NCBI GenBank assembly: GCA_905178155.1
Contig: CAJINV010000024.1
Coordinates: forward strand, 286,515-350,514
DNA from: Amoebophrya sp. A120
Lineage: Eukaryota > Protista > Dinoflagellata
Reading direction: 5' to 3'
DNA: 64,000 bases
The notes beneath the pieces are model-generated. The model was given only the letters and a program-made list of their open reading frames with translations. It made no database searches and was not told the DNA's origin. Position 1 is the stretch's first letter. Each line of letters starts with the position of its first letter. Below, piece by piece: positions 1 to 55,400 of this stretch. The translations under genes and the position numbers were made by a program.

Positions 1-3000
1 TTCTCGTATGCATAATTCACGACTTCTGCTTTTCGGGCTTCCGTGTTTGAGAGGATTGCTCCGGGCTTTCATGACATTTACTTGTCTAGTACCTTTTCGG
101 TTGTGACGTACCAACGCAAACTGGTGAAATTCGGTTCTACCATGTTTGTGTTTTTTCTAAAGTACTTGCTTGCTTTCAGTTGCAACTGAAATCCGTCGTT
201 ACCTAGGGGCGGTTTCGCCCGCTTCACAACGGGAACGCAGTTGAGGGTGCTTCGGCGGCCGAAGGTTTTTTGACATCGACATAAATGACTGTCGGTAGGT
301 TTTTGTTGCTTGCACAGGCTTAGGTCTTCATTGGCTACCTCGAGCGCGCGCAGTTTTTCAAGTAGAAAAAGTAGGTTAGAAGCAGCCGGGGTGCAAGTAG
401 AGGACAACAGCTAGAATTCGAGCGGGCTGAGTGCTTGCGCACTTCTAGGGTGTAACACCGGTAATATCAACCGTGCCCATGCTAGCGGGGCATAGACGAA
501 CGTGACGGGGAGCTGCGCAGTCGGATTTTGCAACCCCCCCTCTAGCTGCACGATGGGGTCCTCAAACGTGGGGCGGCGTGAATTTTTTTTTTCCATGTAA
601 AAAACAAGTCTGAAGTCCTGGCAAATTTGCAAAAATGACCGGAAAATAGGTTTCCGGCTTGGCTGCCCGTGGCTGCCTAAAGACCTAAACCCATTACACT
701 ACAGGCTGGCCTCGAACAGAAAGATAGTGGACTGGTTTCGCGAACAAACATATCAAGTTGAAAAATCCCCCCTCCCCCTATCAAAACGAAGGCTCTGATG
801 CTGGATTTGCGTGCACAAATCAAATTTCTATAGCTGGAGAGCACTACAGGGCAAATATCAAGCCAGAGCAGAGAGGTTTTGGGTTAGGCACTTAGCATGA
901 GAAACGTCTGTGCTCTAGCTCTAGGCCCAACAGCATCACAAACCGCCTGCATGGTGCGCCGGTGCCTGTGGGGTTGCCTGCTTGCAACATAGGCGGAATT
1001 TGTGGTCGCGAATCAGCAACACAAACTTTCGGAGACGTACCTTGTCAATATGGGGAGGGGGGATTTTTCCTCGCAAAAAAACCGCAGACCAACTAATGGA
1101 CTATGAGTCGAAATGTGTCTAAGTCTGGACTTGCCATTCGAAAGTTCAAGGACAAGAAGATAAGTAGAATCTGTGATGCGTGTATACAACGCGTGGCGGC
1201 CATTTTTATTTTTGTCGTCTTCGACGAGCACGAGGCCCGTTTCAGTTTGTCATGCGCTTACTTTACGAAAGATGCCGCAATAAGCCTCGCAAAACTTCTT
1301 CTTATGTATGCTCCTGTGCCGTCGTCCCGTACAAGCGGGGTAAGTACTCCACCGCGACGCAAGTATCAGCAATACAAATTTCTCGAGCCAGACATATTTG
1401 TATTTGATATCGATATGGTTTTCCGCAATTTGTGCCCGCACTTCTTTCCGGCTTTGGTTCGTTTCTTTAAAAGGTACGAAAACTCGCCTTTCTGTGTATA
1501 TTAAATCTGCTATCGTGCAGTAGTAGCTCTCGCCCCCACAGAGTAAGATTACTGATGGTGCATGTGCACTGTCGCGCCGTACGATCAATGTGCGAGAGTG
1601 GCAATTAGAGCTAGATTATGAATAGATATGAGCTCCTCGAGCAACAGTTCTTATCAAAAACCGGAACCAATCGTGCCAAAGCGGCTGGAAAATGCTGGTG
1701 CGGTTTCTCATAGTATAATCTAAGACGCGGCGTTACGATCCGCAGTACAGACATACCTTCAAAGCTGAGCAGCAGAGCAAGGCCTGGCCTCGTAGCAAGC
1801 CTTAGGCGGAGTGCTGGCTTCATGTAGATATCGCGCTGAGGCTGATAAGCTGCAGTTTTGGCTGCATGTTTTTAATTGGCACATTCACAGGCGCAGCCAT
1901 AGCCTGATACTCGAAAGCCATGTTTTAGAAGGCAGGCAGCCCTATTAGCTGCGTTTGTACTAATAACATGATATCAGTTGTTTAATACTCACTTGCTGCT
2001 CGGCTCTGATTGTGTGTTGATTCATTCCAATATGCTGTATGGGGAACGCGAAAACAAGCGAAGTTCCGCATCGGATGCTATGCGGACGAGGATTAGTATC
2101 AAACCAAAATTCACGCAAGACGTAATCAGTCTTTTTCAAAAAGCGTGTAGCTTCCACGCTGCGAGCCAGAGTAAAACATATAATCAAAAGCGTAGAGTAC
2201 AGAACTTTAGCTCCGATGGTACGATGTGCGGCACCAGAAGCAATTTGTCATGCACAAATCAGAATGATTTACGTCTCTGCGGCGTTTCGTTCACATCTAT
2301 ACTCCCCGCAGCTTCAATACATTTGATCACCTGGACGTATGAAGTGTAATACAGAAGTCGCCTTTGTAGTTTTCGATGTCAGTTGCAATCTCACCGCCCG
2401 TATACAAATTATTTCAATTGGTAAGCCCGAGCACCCGCTCATGGTCAGGCCCAGTGCTGTCTACAAGCTACAGTATTGCACTCCTTGGTCGTAATTGCAT
2501 GTAGTATCGCCTCCCTAGCCCAGTCCTGTCGTACCGCGCTAGTAGTATCGAAAATATTAAAGGCTGATATTTTTAGGTACTGCTTTATGCAAATCTGTAC
2601 AGTGAAAGAACAACAAAAAATCTTCGCTATACTGCTACAACTCCATTTCACTATACTCTACACATCTTCTTTTCCATAGTATCGAATACTGCGTGTGATC
2701 CTGCGTTTTCCATAATTGATCCTGCGTGTGATCCTGCGTTTGTTTGAGAACGGATACTACCCCTTTCCAAATCAAAACATTTTAGGACCCGGGGGGACAG
2801 GAAGAGCCCCCCGGTAGCGCTAGTCTCACATGGGTGCACACATAAGGACGTTGACGAAGAAACACACACACACACGGCGGTCAAAAAACACAAACAATAT
2901 GCGTCCAGCACAAACTGCCCTGACTCGCTCACCGGATGGATGCGCCGCCGAGGTCCGTCGCTGCAGTAGCTTAAATAATAATAGCTATAATAGAAAGAAA

Positions 3001-3972
3001 AATATAGAAATAGTAGCGGCAAAGCTATCTGTAGCGCTTTCCTGGTAGAACAGCCGCGCCACGCCGCTGAGCGGGAGACGGCCTGTCCAGTGAGTGAGTG
3101 CCCCGTCAACTGCTCGCCGGGGCGCTGCGTGGAAGAGCAGCGTCGCCGCATGTCGAGCCGGGGAACTAGTTTGCTTTCGATTGCCTTTTTATTTTTTTTT
3201 TTTTAAGTTCCCCGTCATCTCAATTCCCCCTTAACTTGCCGCCTTACTCTTCACGGACATGGGGGATGACATCAGCGCGTAGAACGGTTTGAATCAGACT
3301 CGGGCTACAAGGCCACAGGTAAACTATCCCAGTGTCTTCCGGCCGGCCTTGACGCAATCTGACTACTAAAAACCTCGCGGTAGCTGGGGGGCGTTCTAGT
3401 CTTCGGTCTAGTTCGTCGCCCTCTACCAGGCCTGTACTACCTGAAAGCAGAACTTCGGCTAGGGCAACAAGATCACATCAAGCAGCATCCGCGAGCAGCA
3501 TCCGACCCGAGAGTAGTCAGCCGGGCCATTTCTGAAGGCGCTGCGAGGTGGGCGGAGAGGCATCACGCTAGCAGTTGGACGGGAGCAAGGCCAGCGTTCT
3601 TCTGTGTGATGTTCGTCGTATACTGTCCTGCCTAGTTCAACTATGTAGGTTATCTCTCTCTCTCTCTTGGTCGTAATTGCATGATGCTGAAATTGTTTGA
3701 CATAATAGTGGCCCCGCGCAGGAACGTCCTGTGCCTGCAGGTGCAGGAGCACACTGAAAATTTGTATTTCTTCCAGGCCACACGACCAGACCACGAAGCT
3801 TTTTCGTATATATGGATTCTCCAACATCGGTCGTTTTGGTGGAGTTGCTCTGACAGTGAAGTTTTTGGTCGTTCTAAAAATTACATTTTCATATTCCCTG
3901 TCCGATGAGATATCGACCTTCAGCGAGCCAGCCAGTCAAGCACCGGACGCGGCGCCGTATCGAAGAAGAATT

Positions 3973-4300
3973 GTAGTTCCCCCCTGCTCCCAGAAAGAGC
4001 AGAAGGCCGCTTTTGTATTGCGAGCACCATTCTCATGGGCATCCCCCCTGTAGTTCCCCCCTGTATCCCAGAAAGGGCGGCCGTTTTTGTATTGCGAACA
4101 CCATTCTCATGGGCATCCCCCCTGTAGTTCCCCCCTGTACCCCAGAAAGGGAAGGCCGTTTTTGTATTGCGTGCACCATTTTCATGGGCATCCCCCCTGT
4201 ATTGCGAACAAGAACTGCAGGCCCCCTCTGCTCCCAGAAAAAGAAGTCCATTTTTGTATTGCGAGCACCATTCTCATGGGAACAAACATGAGCATCCCCC
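3973..4300. repeat. Minisatellite, ~74-75 bp unit, ~4 degenerate copies
   Basis: Core TTTTGTATTGCGA.CACCATTCTCATGGGCATCCCCCCTGTA recurs; GTATTGCG at 4015, 4089, 4164, 4198, 4256. Confidence 0.85.
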
Positions 4301-4517
4301 TCTTGCCCAAGAAGTAGGCAAGCAACATAAATGCTTCAGGTGGAAAAGATTCGCCGCGAAGTATATCTCTGCTGGAAAAAAAGGCCGAGCACGAGAGCCC
4401 ACTGCAATGCTTGCCATGTAAAGAAGGCGAAGGTGCAGCAACCTACGCCGAAGCTCTGGACACGTCGCCCTTTCGTGTAAGAAGACAAGAGCTTTTACAT
4501 TTAGAAAGTAGGCATGA

Positions 4518-7500
4518 GAATTAGAGACTTTCCCCAGTTATGATAGATACCGGGGGTGGGGCGCCGCTTATCATCCTGATACCACGAAAAGGAGCTTCCT
4601 GCACAACCAGCTGCGGTTCCGGCCGCCGAATAAGATTATGAGTTGCAAAAGTATCGGCTACTAGTATAGATTGCAATACAAAAAATTGGGTCACGCAGCG
4701 TTGTAGATTAAATTTGTAATGCGGATTTCCCTGAACAACTAGATTTGTAATGCATAAGGCCTGAACAACTAGACTTCTCATGCTCGGGAAATTTGTAATG
4801 CGTTTGTACGAGTACGATACTTCTGCAATGCATAGGAAGTCCAGCAAGTCCATGAAACTGTCAAAGTAGGCACCATTTTCATTTTCGCTATATTCTTCAG
4901 AATCGGCAAAATCAGAGTCAGAACTGCCGCTGCTGAAGTCCTCTAAGTAATCGTGTATTTCCCCATCTCGTACCTCTACCTGTTCTGGCGCCCCCTTCGC
5001 GTCGTGGTTCCCGTCAGTGTCAACACCAGCTTTGGGCTCTCCAGCGTCGTCACCAGCACGACCTTTCTCTTCCTCATTCGCCGCAGGAGCTACAGTGGCT
5101 TCCTTCATAATATCCTTCGCAGCCTTCTTCTCCGCATCCTTTTTCGCCTTTCTCTCAGCGGTTCTAGCCTTTTTAGCCGCATTTTTTTTCTCTTCCATTT
5201 CCCGCTCCAGGAGGTCCTCTGCCGCTGCTTCTTGCAATTTCTTGTCTTTGAAATCCAAAAACTCTTCGAAATGAAGCTTCAACTGTTTCATTTTCGGAAT
5301 CTTCTCGGCTTCGAACTCTTCCCTCTGTTCCATCAATTGCTTCAAACCGTCGAGCGATAGAGGTTTGATCCTTTGGAACTGCTTATCGGTAACCTTGTTC
5401 TTCAGCATGACATGAAGCGCTAGTTTCTGCGGAGGCGGCTTGCGTAGCAAAGCGAAAAGTCGCTTCTTCTCCTGCTCGACTTGTTTTCTCTTCTCTTCTT
5501 TCTCGCTTCGTAACGCGATCTGACTGGCGGTTTTTTCTTTGTCTGAGGAATCTTCACCTTCGGACGAGCGACCATTTTCATCATCATCTCCATCGCGGTT
5601 GTCCCTCTTGCGGGCGACTTTGGAGCCGATTTCTAGTAGTTCTTGTTCCACGCTCTGTGGTTTATTTTGTCCTTCATCTCCGTGGTCTTCATCTTCTTTT
5701 TCGTCTTCGCTGCTTCCTGGCTGGACTCGCTCTTGCTCGATTTTTGAAGTCGTGGCCCTCTGGCAGCTCCCGGAGGTGGTCGTCGTGGTCACCCCGACCT
5801 GGTCCTCTATTTGCCACCAATTCTTCTCGTAATTCCATTTCCACTCCACGCCGTCTGGTAAAAGCGCATTGTCTTCTCCGACATTTTTCCCAGTACCTGC
5901 GTGTTCCTGAAACTCCGAGGACCGCCACGCCGCATGGTTTTCGGAAACGACGAGTTCCTCCGTTGGCCTTGGCTGTTTGTGTAGTTTTTCCACTCTCGCG
6001 GAGCGGTTCTTGTCAGCGGATCGTCGTCATCCGAGTCGCAATCAGAGACGAAAAAGTCGTGACCGCGTGAAGGGTGGCGGTTGTTGACAACGGGCGGATC
6101 AACATTCAGGTTGTTCGCCTGCTCGTCCATCTTCGACGCTAGATTGTGCTGCTCCACAGAGTCGCCAGCCATGGTGGCGCCAAGACTTAAATTCAATTTG
6201 AATTTGATATCAATGGATCAGGAACTCGTTTTTGAAATTCAAATCTGTGATGGGATGAATCGCGATGTCCAATGAGAATGACCACGCTGTGCTTTTTACA
6301 ACATCTTTACCTAATCCTAGCACATAGACATCATACGATAGCTGCGGAAGCTGCCCTCATATAATCTTTTCTTCTTTTGTAGTTGTTTGTCCATTACTAC
6401 TACATCTTCATCCGCTAGGCTAAAAAGAAGGAGAAAATGTAATGCGGATTTCCCTGAACAACTAGATTTGTAATGCATAACTGCAAATTTAGTACGAGTT
6501 GTCGATCCTTTTGCACTGCATAAAGATCCGCTGGTTTCCCGGACTAGTCGGGTTCAGATCTACAACTGGGTCGCCTGCGTCTCCCGTGCAGCAGCACATG
6601 CGAGGCTGTAGTACTACGTCTCGTCCTGCGGGCAGAACCGCCGAGGGAGATGAGCCTGCTCGTCGTGAGGCAAGCTCACGAAGAGCTATGAGTGTGCCTT
6701 CTGGTGGTCTTCCCGGAGATAGTGGTACAACGAGAACGAGGAGTCGGAGGAGCTCCCCCAGAGGCAAAAAACCATCTTCGGGCTGCGGCACCGTGCTGAC
6801 GCTGCTGTCGACGGCGCGGAGACTGAAATCGGCGGCGGAAGTGGAAGAGGAAAGTTCTGAGAAGGCACACAGAACTTCTACACATGCAACTGCTGTGGCC
6901 ACCAAAGCAGGAAAGAGCCACGCAGAAGTGCTGCCACCCAAGATGAACGGGCACCAAAGCAGTGACCGGTATGAGTACGGTCTGCTGATTCGGCGGTTAT
7001 GCAATGCAAAAGCATCGCACTAGTATAAATTGCAGTACAAATTAGCCCAGCCTACAAATTGAATTTGTAATGCTGGTTTACCTTGAGACAGAGATCGCCG
7101 CAAGGTCGCAGCGCGGGGACTCTGTCCCCGCGCCATGACCTTGTTTGTGATGCATAAACGCGATTGCTACGAGTGCGATACTTTTGCACAGGATAGCGGT
7201 GGAGGCTGGACGAGGGTGACGAGAAGAGCAAATCCTTCCCCTCCGGGTATGCCCTGGAAGAGTATCTGCAGGAGGAGCCGCGCCGAAGATCATCGGAAAC
7301 ATCCGAGCGGAGCGTAAGTGGACAATGTGACACGACGCAGGAGGCAGCAGATGACGTCACGGGCCTCCTGCCCGAGAAGCATGGTCACAGTAGAAGCCAC
7401 GACGATGATCATATCGTCGCAGGCAGCGGTAAAATAACGCAACGAAACACGGAAGAAGGCGAAGATCACGCCTCCCTAGCGGAGATCACGATAGCCAGAA

Positions 7501-10500
7501 ATGATCCGCCGTACAGGGCCACGAGCGCGAAGATGACAGGAGGTCGGGGAAAGCCAAAACCAAAACGCCACGAAGTACCAGAGATCGATGCTGGTCGTGC
7601 AAGACCAATCGACAGGGAAGAGGACGCTGCCACACTGCTCGACGCGGAGGAGGAACAGCGCTTCCTCGAGGGAGAGGAGGACGAGCATGGTTCGGAGACC
7701 GAGCGTGATCATGCGCAAAACCAGAAGTATATGTCACAAATGGAAATATATCAGGCGCGCCTTTATAAAGAAAATCGAAATGGCCCGTCAAATTCACCCA
7801 CAAATGGCAATGCAAATAGCGCACAGATGAGCTACAGCAGAACACCACAAGCCAGAGATAACCGAGCAGACGGAGGTGCAGAAAAAAGTGGGCGCTCGGA
7901 GTCAGGTGGCCATGGCCAGGCTGCGGCTGGAACGACGAACAGATGCGAATCTACTTCGCAGAACGACGAGGAGGAGGAGGAGACCATGCTACAACGCAGT
8001 AGCCAGTCGGTGGCCTTCATCCCGTTCGGAGCGCGACTACAAGAACGAGGACAGCATCAACGACAGACACAGATAACCGAAGATGCTGCGGTCGTCGATA
8101 CAAAAACCGAAGCTGCAGCTGCTGCTTCTGAAAAAACCGCATCTGTCGAGGAAGTCGCGATCCCCATGGCGCGGGTCGGGTTTGCGGCGGACGTGGCGAC
8201 GAAAATCGCAAGGCTAATCGCCAAACACGCAGGTGAGCGGGAAAAGGACGGGGTGCTCAACTGGATCGGGAATGAAAGCCGCGACCAGGCAAATCCCCCG
8301 ACAACTGGAGATCATGGTCGGAGAGGTGCGGAAAAATATAGTCGTGGTGCGAAGGACGACAAGAGTTCGAAGAACGCGGAACACGAAGATCCGGAGGCGG
8401 GTGAGGCTGCGACCGGAGGTGCAGCTTTGCCTCGTGGTAGGAAGAACGACCCGATCGGGCAGGAGGACAACGCCTTTGGTACACCGGAGCAAGAAAATGA
8501 CCGCCGGGAGCACCACCACGGCGACGTAGTAGACCCCGAAAAATCATACTCTTCGTCCTTCCACTGCCTCAAAGGCCCGAACTGCCTGTTCCGTAATGTC
8601 TGCCTGAAGGGATTCACCTACGACTCTAGCATATACATTGCAAAAGTACTATGACTACCGTGCAACTTCGTGCGTGAATTGCAATACAAATTTCATTTCC
8701 AAATAAAAAGAAGAAACGCAAATTGTGATGCTGAGTCGCATCGGGCTACCAATCTGTCATGCATGATTGCAATTACTACGTAGGCGGTACTAGGAGTACT
8801 TTTGCACTGGATACACCAACCCACTCGACGATTTCCGATCCAGAATACGGGAGGTGCATTTCGAGTACTTTTTGCCCGAAGATGACACGACTTCCGCTGA
8901 AGTGGACGATGTATCCTGTGCAAAAGTATCGCACTCGTATAAATGCAATACAAATTTCCTCAGCATGAGAAATAAAATTTGTAATGCAGATTTTCGTTGG
9001 AAACAAGATTTGTAATGCAAGACTTGCATTTGTACGAGTACGATACTTTTGCAAAGGATACGATGACCACTCCCACGACGATTGGGAGACCCACAGCGAT
9101 GCGGATACACGGTACATTTTTCAAAATCTGTATCTGATGCCAAATTATCCAAACATCATTCCCAATCTCCGCCACCTGGTGGCGAAAGCGCGGTTTCACC
9201 GGGCGCGTGGTGCTCCCGGGAAGCGGCGGCTCCAAGAACGGGGCAAGAGGGCGCTAGGTTCAGGACGACATCCAGATGAAGTTGTGCATCCTCGCGGTGC
9301 TCTCGCCGATTCCTCGAAAAGCACTCCCAAAACCGCCGTCTTCGTGCAGCGTGCCGGCGGGTTCACACACAACGTCGGCCACGTGATTCTTGACGAGATT
9401 CTGACGGTGTTTCAGGCCATGCTGAAGCACGATAGAATCGGAAGCGACGATCGGGAGATCCAGATATCAAATGCAAAAATGTCTGGATGTCTAGCAACTT
9501 GTGTTGCTGATACTTGAATTGCAAACTTGCTGCTTGTACTGCATAACAGCATGAGAAATTTCGCGGGGCTTATTCCAAATTCATTCGTATTTAGCATGAC
9601 AAAGTACCATATTCCGCACGACAAAAAAACTGGCCAATGGTATTCATGCATTACAGATCTTTTTGTCCTTGAAGTCCTGCATCACAAATCCAGGTCCAGA
9701 CATATTTGCAGTGCATACCAGATTCTACTGCACGAAAAGCAGTCCATGAACATCAATGCGTTCGCGCAGCTGCTCGCGACCACGCCCGGTATTGTGAGGA
9801 AAAATGTCCCCACCCCAGAGTTGTCATGCAAGCCTGCATGCGAAAAACGTTTCTCATGCGGAGCCCCATGAGAAGCATTTTCTATTCGTCATTGGGAATT
9901 TGTGATGCTAGAATCATCATAGTATTGTGGATCTGTGATGCTTCTCCTGAATCAGCTAAACAGGATTACACTACGGAGACAAACTTGTCATGCGAAATAA
10001 CCAAATCTGGTGGATTTGTCTACGCTGATTTCGCATCTTGACTCTGGTGTGGGGACGTTTTTACTCAGGATACCCGGGAAGACTACTTCATCTACACCCG
10101 CAGGTGGTTTTACCGGCGCTTCTACCGCTGCTGGTGGAACTTCCAACGTTTTCGACTGGACGGACATCGATTTGACCACCGAAGTGGATTTTTCTGCACC
10201 CGCTTTGAAATCGTCGGAAATAAAAGTTCACCGTTGCTTTCCGGAGCTCATCCTCGGTTGGGCCCGGTTCCAGGGCTACTGGCACTTAGGGTTTGCCGAG
10301 CTGCAGCAGTACTTTCTGCTTCCAAGACACAGCATCATATGACAGTGCACAACTTCCCATCGTCCCCCTCATTTGTATAGCATGAACGCCAATACAAGCA
10401 TTAGCAAGAGTGCCGGCTTTGCATGACAACGTTTGCACTGGAGTGTAGTCCTATTTTGGCGGCTACCAGCAGAACTTGTCATGCATAAGAGTGCCAAGAG

Positions 10501-38500: not shown

Positions 38501-41500
38501 TTACTCAGGATACCAGGCCGCACTCGTGGGTATGTGTGGCAAAAGCATATCGCACCATTTGAAATCATTCGTCCATCTCATTTTTGCAAATTTGTCCTGC
38601 ACGACAGATGCAATTTTTTATAACGCTGCCTTCATTTTTTTAGTCCAGGGCTAGGAAAGAGATTTTTGTTTTTCATGTTGGAGCACTGGGATTTATGCGA
38701 CTGCGATCATGCTTTTGCATTGCATTGTAAACGCGTTCCAGAGATCGGGGGCGGACCGCGTTGTTTTTCCACCGGACGGTGTAGTTGACCGTGCAACACT
38801 CATCGCAAACAGCATCACAAACAGCCCCAGAAGTGGCACGACGACGACCACAGGAACGACGGCAGATGGTGAGACCAGGAAGAGCATGAATGCAAGAAGC
38901 CCAGGACGTAGTGGTTCTACACACCACGACGGCCCCCGTGAAAAGCAGCAGTTCCAACCGGCGGCGCGGAGTTGCACACAGGGTCGTCGTGCAGTGGATG
39001 TGAATGTTGATGGAGATAAGCAAGAACCAGTTCCACAGATCATGATGGACCACAGCAAAACATCAAACAAATCACCCGCTCAACTTCCTCCTCCACTCTC
39101 CAGCACCGTATGGAAATCCGCTTACTTCGCGGAGCAGACCGCGCGAACGGAAAAAATTACCGCGTCGTTCCGGAAACCCTACCCTATCAACTGCAAAAAT
39201 GTCTGGGTCTGGAAGAATTCAAGACTTGTCATGCAGGTTTTCCATGACGCGTGAGGTCTGTCATACATGACCCAGCATGACAGATTCTCCTCGAGCTCTA
39301 TCATGCCTCTTCTGCATGAGAAACTCCCTCTCAGCTTGGTCAAAAGTGGACAGCTTTTGGTAATCATGCAACACAGATCCTTGCACTATCCAGAATTAGC
39401 ATGACAAGTTGGATTCTTCCAGACCCAGACATATTTGCAATGCATATACCCACCGAACCACCCACGGCCGCCGGGTGTGACGCCCGAGGTTTTCAGAACT
39501 TTCTGCGACTTGGGGAGGATACGAGTAGAATTTAAAGACGCGATTTTTCCACGATATACCGGTTATTCACCGACGCGCACTCTCTTACAAGAGGTGATGC
39601 GGGGAGAAGAACACAAAAATGAGCCAGACAAGACCTCTATCAAATGCAAAAATGTCTGGGTCTGGAAGGGTGCAACTTGTGATGCTGCGTTTGGATTCCA
39701 AAAAAATCTGTATTGCATGAGCAGCAAGGGTATGAGTGTCTTTTTTCTACGGGAAGAGGACATTTGTCATGCGGAATAGGCATCCGCATCCAGAAGCCCT
39801 CAAAAAATCTCTGATGCTAGGGCATGCATCACAGACCACATGGCTCATGCAAAACTTGCATGACAACTCTCAGAATCTTCCAGACCCAAACATTTTCGCA
39901 CTTGATAACCTCTCCCGCAGCGGTCTTCCCGCCCGTGTGGAACAACGGCCGCTACACAACGGATGTGGCCGCGATAGGTGCAAAGAGGATGATCGGCGGT
40001 AATAAAACCACGACACATGATCAACATCAATTAGAACCGGGCGGAGCAACCAGCAGAAGTGTACGACAGGCCTCCACTTGTTCTTCTCAATCCAGGTTCA
40101 AGTGGCCAACCGGTATCGTCAGTCCGGAAAATGCGCAGGAACTTTACCGGGGACTCTTTCTTCAAGAGCCTGAATCTTCAGCAGGAGGCGTAGCAGGTTC
40201 TCCCGGAGGAGGTACAGCGCCAGCTATAATTGGCGATCTGGCTACTTCTCCCCGACGGTCCTCTTGGGCGGCAGTGCAACTCTCTGATGATGAGGAGGAG
40301 GAGGATACCAGCCCTGAGTCTTCATCTGCAGCTCGACGGCAATTCATTCCGGCGGAAACAAAGAATGCAATTGCAAGCCCATCAGCGACCCGCACCGACA
40401 GAGCCCCACTTCATATCTCAACGGAGAGCAAGAATCCCAAAACCTTGACGTGCCACATCACCGGCTCTTTCGGATTTTCCGGGAAAGAGTTCCAGTTAAA
40501 ATACCCGGGATTGCGTCTGGATGGAAGGAAAGGCCTCTCTATCCTGTGTAAAAACGTCCCAACCCTATAGTCAAGATTGGGATTTTGCAACACAAACCTC
40601 GGAGTTTTGGAAGTCGCGCATGACAAGTTGCACTCCGTAGTGTAGTGCAGGTTAGCAAGTGCAGCCGCATCACAGATCCATCTGCTGATCCTGTTCTCAG
40701 CATCACAAATTCCAAAACACGACTGGAAATCATGTCTACCATGGGCATGCGCATCACAAATGCCTTTGTCATTGCAAATCTGCATGGTAACTCTGGAGTG
40801 GGGACGTTTTTCCTCAGGATACTCTCGCTGCGGCGCATCAAGCGGGACATTGCGGTCCAGTTGTGTGGGCGTCCAGGGTACGCAGTGCAGAAGTGTCGTA
40901 CTCGTAAGGGGAAATCGCATTACAAATGAGCTCAGCAGGATGACAAATGGAATTTGTAATGCTGATTTAGCTCAAGAGTATGGTCTGCACCCGTCATGCA
41001 AAATTCCGCAATAATTAGAATTAGGATTAGTTACGAGTACGATATTTTTGCAACGCATACAGACGTCTTTTCGCATCTGCAAATTCTCGACATGAAAATC
41101 TACGACCCTGTTGCATCCTCGCCACCGTCGTCGCCGCCCCTTTCTCCAGCTGCCGGCGACTCGTTGGCGCCGGAGTTTTTGCTGATAAGACGGCAAGATG
41201 AAGCTGCAATGGAGTTGACAGAAAATACTTCTTCCCCAGGAGCCACGACCGATGGTGATGGGCTCGCGGACCACGACAAGACGAGATTAATAGAAACACC
41301 GGCTGCGAAGATGAAGCCAGTAGTTTTGCAAGCTTTTTTGTCCTCCGGGGCGGCAGTTAATCCTGGTTTCAGCCCACCGTTTCAGTTTCCAGTGCCGGAC
41401 GTGCGGGAAGTACAGGATAGTGGTGGCGACGAGGAGGATAGTTTGTCCGATCCTGCTGAAAGAGTTGTGCATCATGATGATCGTGAAACTAAGAACTCGT

Positions 41501-52425: not shown

Positions 52426-55400
52426 TGCGCCGACTCGTCGTCGCGGCAGGACCACAATAATCCCCAGGGACACGGCGACGACGACCCCATTTTTCCTCCA
52501 GGCTTGGGTTGGACGCAACGCAAAAATCTTGTGGCTCTGCAGGTGAGATGAACTGTTTGGCTTTAACTTTATTTATCAGTACAACAGAATAAATGATTGC
52601 GATGAAGCGAGATGTAAATGTCTTTGTCTCCTTTTGTACTTGTATGATCATGGGTGCAGGTGCAGCCTGGATGACAACACCAAAACCAAAAGTTGCCGGT
52701 GAAGATGCGCGTTTCAGAATTACTTGTCGATCCAAAATAAATTGAGGTGAACAACGGTCTTCGAGCTCCTGAGGTGCCTTTGCCGAACGTGCCGGCCGTT
52801 GTTGCTAATGCTGCTCTACTGCCTGAGCCTGTCGCCGCCGGGGCCGCACCGGCACCTGCGCCGGCCATGCCAGATCGGAACGTGCGTCCCGTACCGCCCC
52901 AGGATTCATTTGCTCGTCCCCTGAACTACCAGCTGCCTAGCAACCACCCGCTGCGGCAGAACCACCAGTGTCCACCGCCGGGGGCCCACCAGCCGATGCC
53001 GATGGTCGGAGACGGTGGGACGTTGAACAACGCGGGTGGAGTTGTTCCCGCAGTCGTCGTCCAGGAGAACAACGGGCAGAACGGTATGAACTGCATAATA
53101 TCTTCCCTGGATGTCTGGAAGATTGCAAGTTTTGTCATGCTAGTCTGGCATGACTCTGAACTCTGTATTGCATGCCGGCGAACTAATAGAAGTCTCTTGT
53201 CTGTCATGCAAAAACGCGGTTCTTATTGTGATGCGGAGTACGCAACTCTTAGCCACGGAAAAACTTGTCATGCTGGGGAGCGCATTACGGTGTGCTCACT
53301 ATTCCCTTTTTTGCATCAGAAGTTTCTAGACATCCAGGGATATTTGCAATGCATAAACGTGGTGGAAGATCATGAACAGGTACAGCATGAAGGACTTCCT
53401 CCCGGTCCTGTGCAGCCAAACCTCCCATCCCGTCCGTTTGACAAGATCCGCGCTTTGCTCCACGATGATGCTGCGCCGCGGAACCACGGGGGGCTCGACG
53501 GGGTTCTTGATGCAAATCGTGCACCTGCTGCAGCGGCTCCTATCCCCAATGCCATCGCGCCGGCTGCCGGCCGCGACCACAGAGTATCAAATGCAAATAT
53601 GTCTCGGTCTGGATGTATCCATGGATTTTTCATGCTAGATTGGTATGACACGAAGCTTTGTATTGCGTGGCTACGAAGTACAGCTCCTCTGGTCGCCTTT
53701 TTCATGCGGAATACGGAACACAGAACCACGGAGAAATCTGTCATGCTTGGTGCAGCATTCCTCCAGGGAGCTTACGACTCACTGACCTGCATCACAAATG
53801 TCCAGACCCAGCAGACATATTTGCATTTGATACAGAGTGCTGTGGGAGGACGATGACGACGCCGCGGACAACTACCCGCGTCCGGATCGATACGACGACC
53901 TAGAAGACGACAGCATCCTGCTCCCCGACTACGGACCCGCTGACATCCGCGTGGGGGCAGTGCTGGCCCGCGGAGGCTTCGGCGTGGTGTACGAGGGGGA
54001 GCTTCTGGTGGGTAGTCCGGATGGTTTACAGCGGCTCTCGCACCTGGAAGGCCAGGAACGCGGCGTAAAGCAGCTCGCGTTGAAGCAGCACGCGGACGAC
54101 AAGCGGGGCGTAGGACGCTGGTTTCGCGACGAACTGGAGATCGCGCAGGAGATCAACCGACTCGGCGGTAATGCGGCGATTCTGCGCGCCCACGGAAAGT
54201 TTGTCGACGCAGAGGAGAACGCGTACATTGTGCTGGACCAGTTTCCCACCGGGAACCTCGCGGAACTCATCGCCACGAAAAGCACCGACGTGTCGATGGA
54301 GCGGCGGATCTCCATTTTGCTCCAAATTGCAGACGCGGTGATCTTATGCATTGCAAAAGGATCGTACGAGTTAGTATGAATTGCATTACAAATTCATAAT
54401 TTCGGAGGAACAAAAATGCTTTTTGTCATGCTATTTTAGGTAGGAAATTGAATTTGTCATGCATATTGGCAATGATAACGAGTGCGATATTTTTGCAGAG
54501 GATAAGCATTCCTGCACACGCACAGCATAGTGCACCGCGACATCAAGCCGGAGAACATTTTGATGACGAACGAGTGGTCTTTATTCTGAGCAAAAACGTC
54601 CCCACCCCAGAGTCAAGATGGGAAATCTGCTAGGCAAATCAACCATCTTGGTCTGTTTCGCATGACAAGTTTGTCCTCGTATTGCTTTTTTTAATAATCC
54701 TGTTTATTTTGATAGCTAGCCCAGCAGCATCAGGTTCAGGCATGCATATTTGCATGACAACTCTGGTCGTGTGGGAATATTTTTACTCAGGATAGTCCCC
54801 GCTGCTCGGCGACCTCGGACTGGCGTGCAAGGTGGACGGGACGAACCACCAATTCGACGAGGGATTCTGCGGTACGCTCGGCTGGTCATACGCGGACTAC
54901 GGCGGTTGGCAACTATGATGGTAAAAATAAAAAAGTCGTGTTTAGTGTGACGCTGTGATGCAGAGCTGTGTACTCGAACAATTTTACGATTTGTTATGCC
55001 AGACACGCATGAAGTGCTCTTCCTTTTGCTTTTCATCGTATATTTTCTTTCTATTCTACTAGCTGTGCATAACGGAGACTGTCATGCGGAGGAAGTTTGT
55101 CATGCTGGGACTCGACGAAGACAACCACAACTACACTATACACAACTTTGTTTCCCTTGCATAGAAGCCCCCCAGGAGCTACTACCTCGACGAATATTCC
55201 GTCGCGATGCTGGCGGGGTGGCTCGTAAGTGAAGAAAAACCGCGGGGGAAGCCGCAAACACCGATTGCGGGATTCTTGAAGAGGATCAAACCGGTGGTGG
55301 CCTGGGACCCGCTGTTTGCGTCGTTCCTGCTCCGCTCGGCAGAACTCCTCGTCAAGGACCGGCTGACGCTGACGGAGCTGCAGCCGGACCTCGCGCTCCT

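Follow-up and report, generated by a model that had tools for sequence, protein, structure and literature searches.

The 64,000-nt stretch of Amoebophrya sp. A120 DNA analysed here (the window; contig CAJINV010000024.1, positions 286,515 to 350,514) contains a left inverted repeat at 4637 that is followed by two right repeats, one ending at 4834 and the other at 6522. This raises the question of which of the two is the true partner of the left end, and of how the DNA between them came to reside in an intron. We found that 4637–6522 is a 163-nt TAT…ATA introner of the Amoebophrya A120 type that is interrupted by 1,723 nt and flanked on both sides by AAGAT, giving the loaded element a total length of 1,886 nt. 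The insert consists of a 16-nt filler, approximately 60 nt of an oppositely oriented second family member, 1,603 nt of non-element cargo and 43 nt repeated from the element:

4632–4636, plus strand: left 5-nt direct repeat AAGAT (sequence)
4637–4757, plus strand: left 121 nt of the resident introner, with the left inverted repeat at 4637–4666 (aligns to natural members; unbranched DNA contig 4330–4744)
4715–4757, plus strand: first copy of the 43-nt duplication, internal to the element (exact match)
4758–4773, plus strand: junction filler, GG plus a copy of 4730–4743 (likely templated)
4774–4834, minus strand: end of a second family member, approximately 60 nt, source of the inner repeat that has no matching flank (93% over 59 nt)
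4835–6437, no strand assigned: cargo, 1,603 nt of non-element DNA, likely with a second genomic copy (approximately double depth, allele bubbles, DNA contigs ending at 6437)
6438–6480, plus strand: second copy of the 43-nt duplication, blunt to the cargo (bridged by contigs of runs X3, X4 and X6)
6481–6522, plus strand: rightmost 42 nt of the resident introner, including the outer inverted repeat (unbranched DNA contig 6451–6955)
6523–6527, plus strand: right 5-nt direct repeat AAGAT (sequence)

The left inverted repeat is preceded by AAGAT, while the inner right repeat is followed by GGAAG (a 1/5 match) and the outer right repeat by AAGAT (5/5). The pentamer has a frequency of 0.0011 in the window and none of the 420 non-cognate flank pairs there match, which bears out the proposal of the first-pass annotation that the outer repeat at 6522 is the true partner of 4637. 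The longer spacer that it described at both outer ends was likewise found, at 2 nt more than in other family members. The end motif of TAT, seven bases and AAA is present at both 4637 and 6522, and the inverted repeat joining the intron ends is complementary at 16/20 positions (77% over the 31-nt arms). Taken without the insert, the 163 nt align end to end with a natural member, L093, at 81%. Since positions 1–121 and 139–198 of the inner 198 nt match one and the same member in opposite orientations, this stretch is a chimera, and 4774–4834 is the end of a second, oppositely facing element; it is 93% identical over 59 nt to natural members and lies on the same member in the orientation opposite to 4637–4757. 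The earlier view that the cargo ends in a half-introner of its own was thus correct, the half coming from a different family member, and an end facing this way would fit an intron of a minus-strand gene.

The 43-nt duplication (4715–4757 and 6438–6480) is exact, as first reported. Exact sharing of 39–41 nt was found in 3 of 210 element pairs in the window, so the match is not unique by its length; what is distinctive is the abrupt start of the second copy after non-element DNA at a blunt junction (6437/6438), and five family members share only 11–14 nt with it. The filler is GG followed by an exact copy of 4730–4743, a 14-mer that occurs three times in the window (4730, 4760 and 6453), always inside the element. 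A search of 148 family loci from a related assembly did not find it; the members there have a different sequence at that place. The filler loosely resembles native sequence, and 4 of 141 members have internal exact repeats of at least 14 nt. Judged from the letters, it was likely copied from 4730–4743 as template.

Pairing over this distance is exceptional within the family. A window scan for elements with 5-nt direct repeats returned 31 entries, of which the 12 without the TAT…ATA motif were set aside; 18 of the remaining 19 are 149–348 nt long and the other is 4637–6522. A motif scan of the second, related assembly yielded at least 149 family stretches (L001–L149), 80 of them with long flanks. 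A right end lies downstream of 160 family left ends, and for 141 of these a nearby mate with a 4–5/5 repeat was found at 123–313 nt (median 150). In a census of the window and 148 related-assembly loci we counted 236 short cognate pairs; long pairs that included an already mated end never carried a 5/5 repeat (0/188), whereas long pairs of unmated ends did so in 2 of 29 cases, one being 4637–6522. Where 2 kb of room was available (137 family ends), 115 had a short mate, 21 had no mate and one had a distant perfect mate (L079:202-2660).

The element lies in a host gene on the plus strand, the relevant parts of which are as follows:

2048–2077, plus strand: terminal part of an alternative exon upstream, with a direct joint to 6527; C and the TAT-type end at 2079 come next (X4 record, depth 6.1)
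3956–4584, plus strand: upstream host intron, the TAT…ATA element 3958–4581 plus 5 nt, containing a 74-nt tandem array (X5 contig)
4585–4635, plus strand: host exon before the element (X5 contig 4585–4631, depth 30.2; open frame)
6527–6996, plus strand: host exon after the element (X3 and X5 contigs)

A 6,336-nt contig of X5, a probable RNA run, joins 4585–4631 to 6523–6992 at a depth of 30.2 and skips 1,891 nt, the length that had been predicted for the intron. The joint (4631 to 6523) has a 5-nt ambiguity and 47 nt on its short side, and the same contig also skips the next introner. This splice evidence is one contig of one sample, X5 being RNA by the guess of a tool and none of the eleven listed runs, of which seven were compared, being recorded as such; the joint is absent from X2, X4 and X6. 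The DNA contigs of X1 and X2 are unbroken across both sides (4330–4744 and 6451–6955), which speaks against an intron-free DNA copy as the source of the joint. Before 4585 the loose end of the X5 contig equals 3926–3955, giving a joint from 3955 to 4585, and the spliced path corrected in this way is open from 3709 to beyond 7400. The claim that removal of the 1,891 nt leaves the host frame open therefore stands, although the upstream frame quoted for it up to 4584 is mostly intron 3956–4584. A stop within six codons had been predicted for use of the inner repeat; this holds for removal of the inner element plus 5 nt, which gives a stop at the sixth codon, but removal of only the 198 nt gives a stop only after 41 codons.

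The outer and inner stems have nearly equal energies (−25.0 and −23.6 kcal/mol), so pairing alone does not account for use of the outer end. The outer end could be preferred by the machinery, or the inner-spliced product, with its stop at the sixth codon, could be destroyed by decay. No inner joint at 4834–4839 was found among the joints listed (2 joints at a 15% share), and the inner piece has a single end. In X4 the cargo is present unspliced at a depth of 4–8 that rises toward the exon; in this sample, shared by X3, X4 and X6, intron retention or a transcript start inside the cargo is possible. The locus constitutes a natural experiment: a single left end has two right ends with which it could pair at similar strength, one close and one distant, and the distant one is used across 1.9 kb.

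Two further joints bear on where the cuts fall. A 60-nt record of X4 (depth 6.1; one run only) joins 2077 to 6527 in frame and with zero ambiguity, the cuts falling 1 nt ahead of the TAT end at 2079 and 4 nt beyond the outer right end; as a joint between unrelated ends, it lifts the cut-site ambiguity that the direct repeat normally causes. Approximately 4.4 kb (2078–6526) is skipped between these two ends. They can form a 7-pair stem, and the data suggest that ends of different elements are able to pair. The upstream intron 3956–4584 corresponds to element 3958–4581 plus 5 nt, with a repeat match of 3/5 and cuts 0–2 nt before the left end. One shared register, 1 nt before and 4 nt after the element, fits both this intron and the 2077/6527 joint, and we treat it as a lead from two single-run joints. 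A wider generalisation, which we regard as tentative and on balance doubtful, is that splicing is set by the element ends alone at this fixed register, whatever lies between them and even across different elements. Introners would then be places where kilobase gene duplications can land safely, exon skipping and new 5′ ends would arise from them, any loaded element whose ends are intact could move on, and hundreds of cases might exist genome-wide.

Several minor observations concern the host gene. Element 3958–4581 is a degenerate 624-nt TAT…ATA intron with a four-copy 74-nt tandem array, and it is still removed with exactly 5 extra nt. A GT-AG host intron near 4477–4526 was also considered; the X5 contig does not use it. 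Positions 4330–4615 have no cover in X3, X4 and X6 and were not counted as evidence. Downstream, with more introners in between, the gene extends to a region near 11.6 kb that weakly resembles glycosyltransferase 61 (Pfam PF04577, E 0.037, which does not reach the cut-off). The 6998–7195 introner is missing from one X1 DNA contig, which joins 6992 to 7196 at a depth of 42.6 and has 3 additional letters at 6961, and X1 depth is raised to about 8050 (6926–8050); this contig likely represents a paralog of the host gene that lacks this intron.

We then considered the content of the cargo, in which three features stand out:

4836–6026, minus strand: acidic, lysine-rich frame of 397 codons without a stop as far as the inner repeat (0/500 resamples reach that length)
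5807–6175, minus strand: overlapping upstream frame from the ATG at 6175, of which the long frame is the −1 frame (differences at 6016 and 6062 silent in this frame)
6317–6437, minus strand: 16/16 pyrimidine tract, AG at 6421–6420 and a short open frame ending at 6317 (sequence only)

Resampled frames had a median length of 140 and a maximum of 346 codons (n = 500). The stretch 6317–6437, with its acceptor-like tract at 6437–6420, likely comprises an intron end and a small exon. Intron-like sequence is therefore found at both cargo ends, as expected of genomic DNA. The cargo had been described as the frameshifted 5′ part of a gene. The frame change between 6175–5807 and 6026–4836 is indeed present in reads, but the cargo runs past the ATG at 6175 to the acceptor-like tract and may not be just a 5′ part. 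For the frame change we found no convincing GT-AG intron or slippery site, the 124 formal candidates including none with strong signals. Between the two cargo copies described below, 6 of 12 changed codons are silent, a count in which several of the window's A's may be assembly errors; together with the frame length, this weakly suggests that the cargo may be a gene. No homolog of the 397-codon protein was found in Pfam or among 7,994 and 4,476 candidates, and no relative among 1.84 billion representatives; none of 595 pattern matches was confirmed, and there was no usable Atlas match. On the minus strand the cargo frame stays free of stops through the inner 198 nt and for 39 further codons antisense to the host, up to a stop at 4521 (4521–6026). 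This readthrough is probably due to chance, but an antisense transcript left unspliced would encode a chimeric end. We rejected the reading that an intact minus-strand gene uses the inner 198 nt as an intron, as the 198 nt are a chimera without matching flanks and the plus-strand joint is present. The cargo would be a passenger, with no sign of onward movement or of a protein product.

The contigs suggest that the cargo also exists elsewhere in the genome. X1 DNA depth by bin is 52–90 over the cargo versus 42–52 on the unique flanks, X1 alleles split at 4892, 5355, 5361 and 5370, DNA contigs of both X1 and X2 end at 6437, and the DNA contigs differ from the exon-linked X3 contig at 6016, 6062 and 6309. 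A second genomic copy, approximately 1–2% different and leaving the shared sequence at 6438, is likely, contig depth being a rough guide rather than a copy number. No match to the cargo that could be the donor was found within the window or in the 148 family loci of the related assembly. At 4949, 5848 and 6309 the window has A where every contig compared has another letter, and these A's are likely assembly errors or filled ambiguities in the duplicated part.

As to origin, we consider it probable that 1,723 nt from another locus were captured in place during break repair, and that the whole 1,891 nt is now spliced at the outer inverted repeats. An empty 163-nt element would first have inserted into the host exon, creating the AAGAT repeat seen in the anatomy. 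A break or stalled fork inside the element would have followed, with repair synthesis slipping back 14 nt. Synthesis may then have jumped to a comparable motif in another family member at a different place, copying its last 60 nt and 1.6 kb of neighbouring gene region, before rejoining the first element 43 nt upstream of the break and so leaving the duplication that we observe. The surviving original ends would still direct cutting, with likely cut sites 1 nt ahead of the left end and 4 nt beyond the right end (the register of the two other joints), and the host frame would be restored as in the X5 contig. Repair synthesis within the element, with changes of template, would account for the filler, the end that faces the other way, the unspliced state of the cargo and the duplicated 43 nt. 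The first-pass proposals of recombination or template switching between related introners, and of an intact donor gene that would carry an introner at the corresponding place, are plausible. The blunt and duplicated right junction counts against in-place gap filling, where microhomology and a small gap are usual.

One alternative is a mobile Pack-type introner that acquired its cargo at another locus and came to this site whole, by transposition. Both ends and a perfect 5-nt repeat are intact and the cargo copies differ by only approximately 1–2%, as this reading would have it. However, under in-place capture it was insertion of the empty element that produced the 5-nt repeat, which is therefore no evidence that the loaded element moved. 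The DNA contigs holding the two ends of the loaded element are unbranched and of single depth, and at 6438 the second cargo copy departs without entering the 43-nt repeat or continuing into the element. No second loaded copy was seen in the DNA contigs, among which diverged copies would be missed. We therefore regard transposition as a unit as improbable, and the suggestion that these elements mobilise host sequence found no support at this locus.

A comparably poor prospect is that the cargo is part of a low-copy mobile element, or that such an element inserted into the introner. Two overlapping frames in a −1 relation and the lack of a host homolog would be in keeping with this, and introner families bearing open reading frames are reported in Amoebophrya A120 (in the part of PMC12130899 drawn on here). 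Against it, the cargo has no Pfam, HMMER or Atlas match to mobile-element proteins, is present in only about two copies, has no terminal repeats of its own and carries an acceptor-like tract at its right end. We give still less credence to integration, through one crossover, of a circle or tandem copy from a donor locus that also held the 43 nt. A single crossover does duplicate the stretch in common, and exact sharing of approximately 40 nt occurs between family members, but natural members do not have the 43 nt beside the 60-nt end in such an arrangement, 4728–4834 is at single depth, and the 16-nt filler requires a further event. Reverse transcription is very unlikely as the source of the insert; here a nick in the element would have primed copying of an unspliced minus-strand transcript, and the 43 nt would be the target duplication. 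The orientation is consistent with copying of a minus-strand RNA, and a blunt far junction with filler at the primed junction resembles nick-primed reverse-transcribed insertions; however, there is no poly(A), and both cargo ends lie in intron-like sequence rather than at transcript ends.

The first-pass annotation had proposed long reads to exclude misassembly at the 43-nt repeat. The right junction is real: it is bridged from cargo through the 43 nt and the right end to the exon by RNA-type contigs of X3 (5537–6992, then spliced), X4 (6230–6556) and X6 (6131–6990), all of one sample. X4 has no cover of 4728–4757. In X2 DNA the flanks have depths of 21 and 29.5, 4728–4834 has 19.4 and 6017–6437 has 41.2, the arms at the 43-nt repeat thus being at 21, 19.4 and 29.5. 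Because the right junction is real and every arm is at single depth, the left junction is real as well, an argument from graph flow in which no single read crosses it. Misassembly is accordingly unlikely. The 4631 to 6523 joint alone cannot exclude it, as a short intron would look identical. That the locus is an ordinary 163-nt introner misassembled at the 43-nt repeat, at which DNA contigs break and cannot phase it, is highly improbable given contigs of three runs (one sample) that bridge cargo to exon, no other exit in X4 and the single depth of each repeat arm.

The locus was compared with several known systems. Amoebophrya A120 introners are described as having TAT, seven variable bases and AAA, an 8–20-nt inverted repeat, a 3–5-nt direct repeat and non-GT-AG borders (Farhat et al. 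2021, PMC7789003). The present element resembles them in its end motif, inverted repeat, 5-nt direct repeat, non-canonical borders and repeated family, the loaded form itself being single. Unlike them, it holds foreign DNA and a second member's end, and it measures 1,886 nt versus 149–348 nt in the window. Because only introns of 40–1,000 nt were kept in that study, loaded introners of this size fell outside its analysis. Long introners with an internal frame between inverted repeats are described among the A120 families bearing open reading frames, family 38 being one example (Gozashti et al. 2025, PMC12130899); such families comprise several nearly identical copies and are homologous to known elements, whereas ours is single and its frame is without such homology. 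No account of introners capturing genes was found in the literature searched, including the portions of PMC12130899 and PMC11282704 consulted.

Most single-copy Pack-TIRs, according to the part of Tan et al. 2021 (PMC8277862) used here, arise by gap filling without transposition. The locus is like them in having non-element DNA between the halves of one inverted-repeat element, internal breakpoints, filler and a single copy, with transposition not needed. It differs in that splicing removes the carrier, an intron, at the carrier's own ends, 43 nt are present twice instead of being lost, and the cargo is large against a Pack-TIR median of 224 bp. The pipeline of that study required a parental copy of at least 90% identity with no element closer than 100 bp. 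To judge by the 60-nt element end in the insert, the donor would likely not pass the second of these filters; such captures form a class that the pipeline excluded, and the evidence for a parental copy here is indirect. Pack-MULEs and multicopy Pack-TIRs such as Ssk-FB4 (PMC8277862; see also PMC6379663 and PMC8903248) also carry a gene fragment within inverted repeats and a target duplication, but here no second loaded copy was seen, the repeats are short at approximately 30 nt, the duplication is 5 nt rather than 9–10 nt and there is no known transposase. The element is best described as an introner that is also a single-copy Pack-type element, the capture route itself being already known from animals and plants. 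The locus, a single case, ties introners to gene-fragment duplication, and introners are likely able to absorb gene pieces without breaking the host gene. It is an open question how Amoebophrya removes introns that lack GT-AG signals when no U1 RNA can be detected (PMC7789003).

The census also yielded observations on other family members. The distant pair L079:202-2660 of the related assembly is a second candidate loaded introner by its sequence, a 2,459-nt element with a perfect 5-nt repeat that is split 22 nt inside its left end by approximately 2.2 kb of unique DNA with a 415-codon frame; this frame has no Pfam match and matched only itself. L052:1359-2506 is a 1,148-nt element of the 283-nt family with a 4/5 repeat, and no clear long frame was found in its approximately 860 extra nt. 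Two family members in the window (40879–41059 and 54345–54504) have no matching flank and are possibly rearranged or aged copies. Introner families are common to the window and the second assembly (L001–L149), with up to 94% identity, whereas the part of PMC7789003 used here describes families as specific to each of two Amoebophrya strains.
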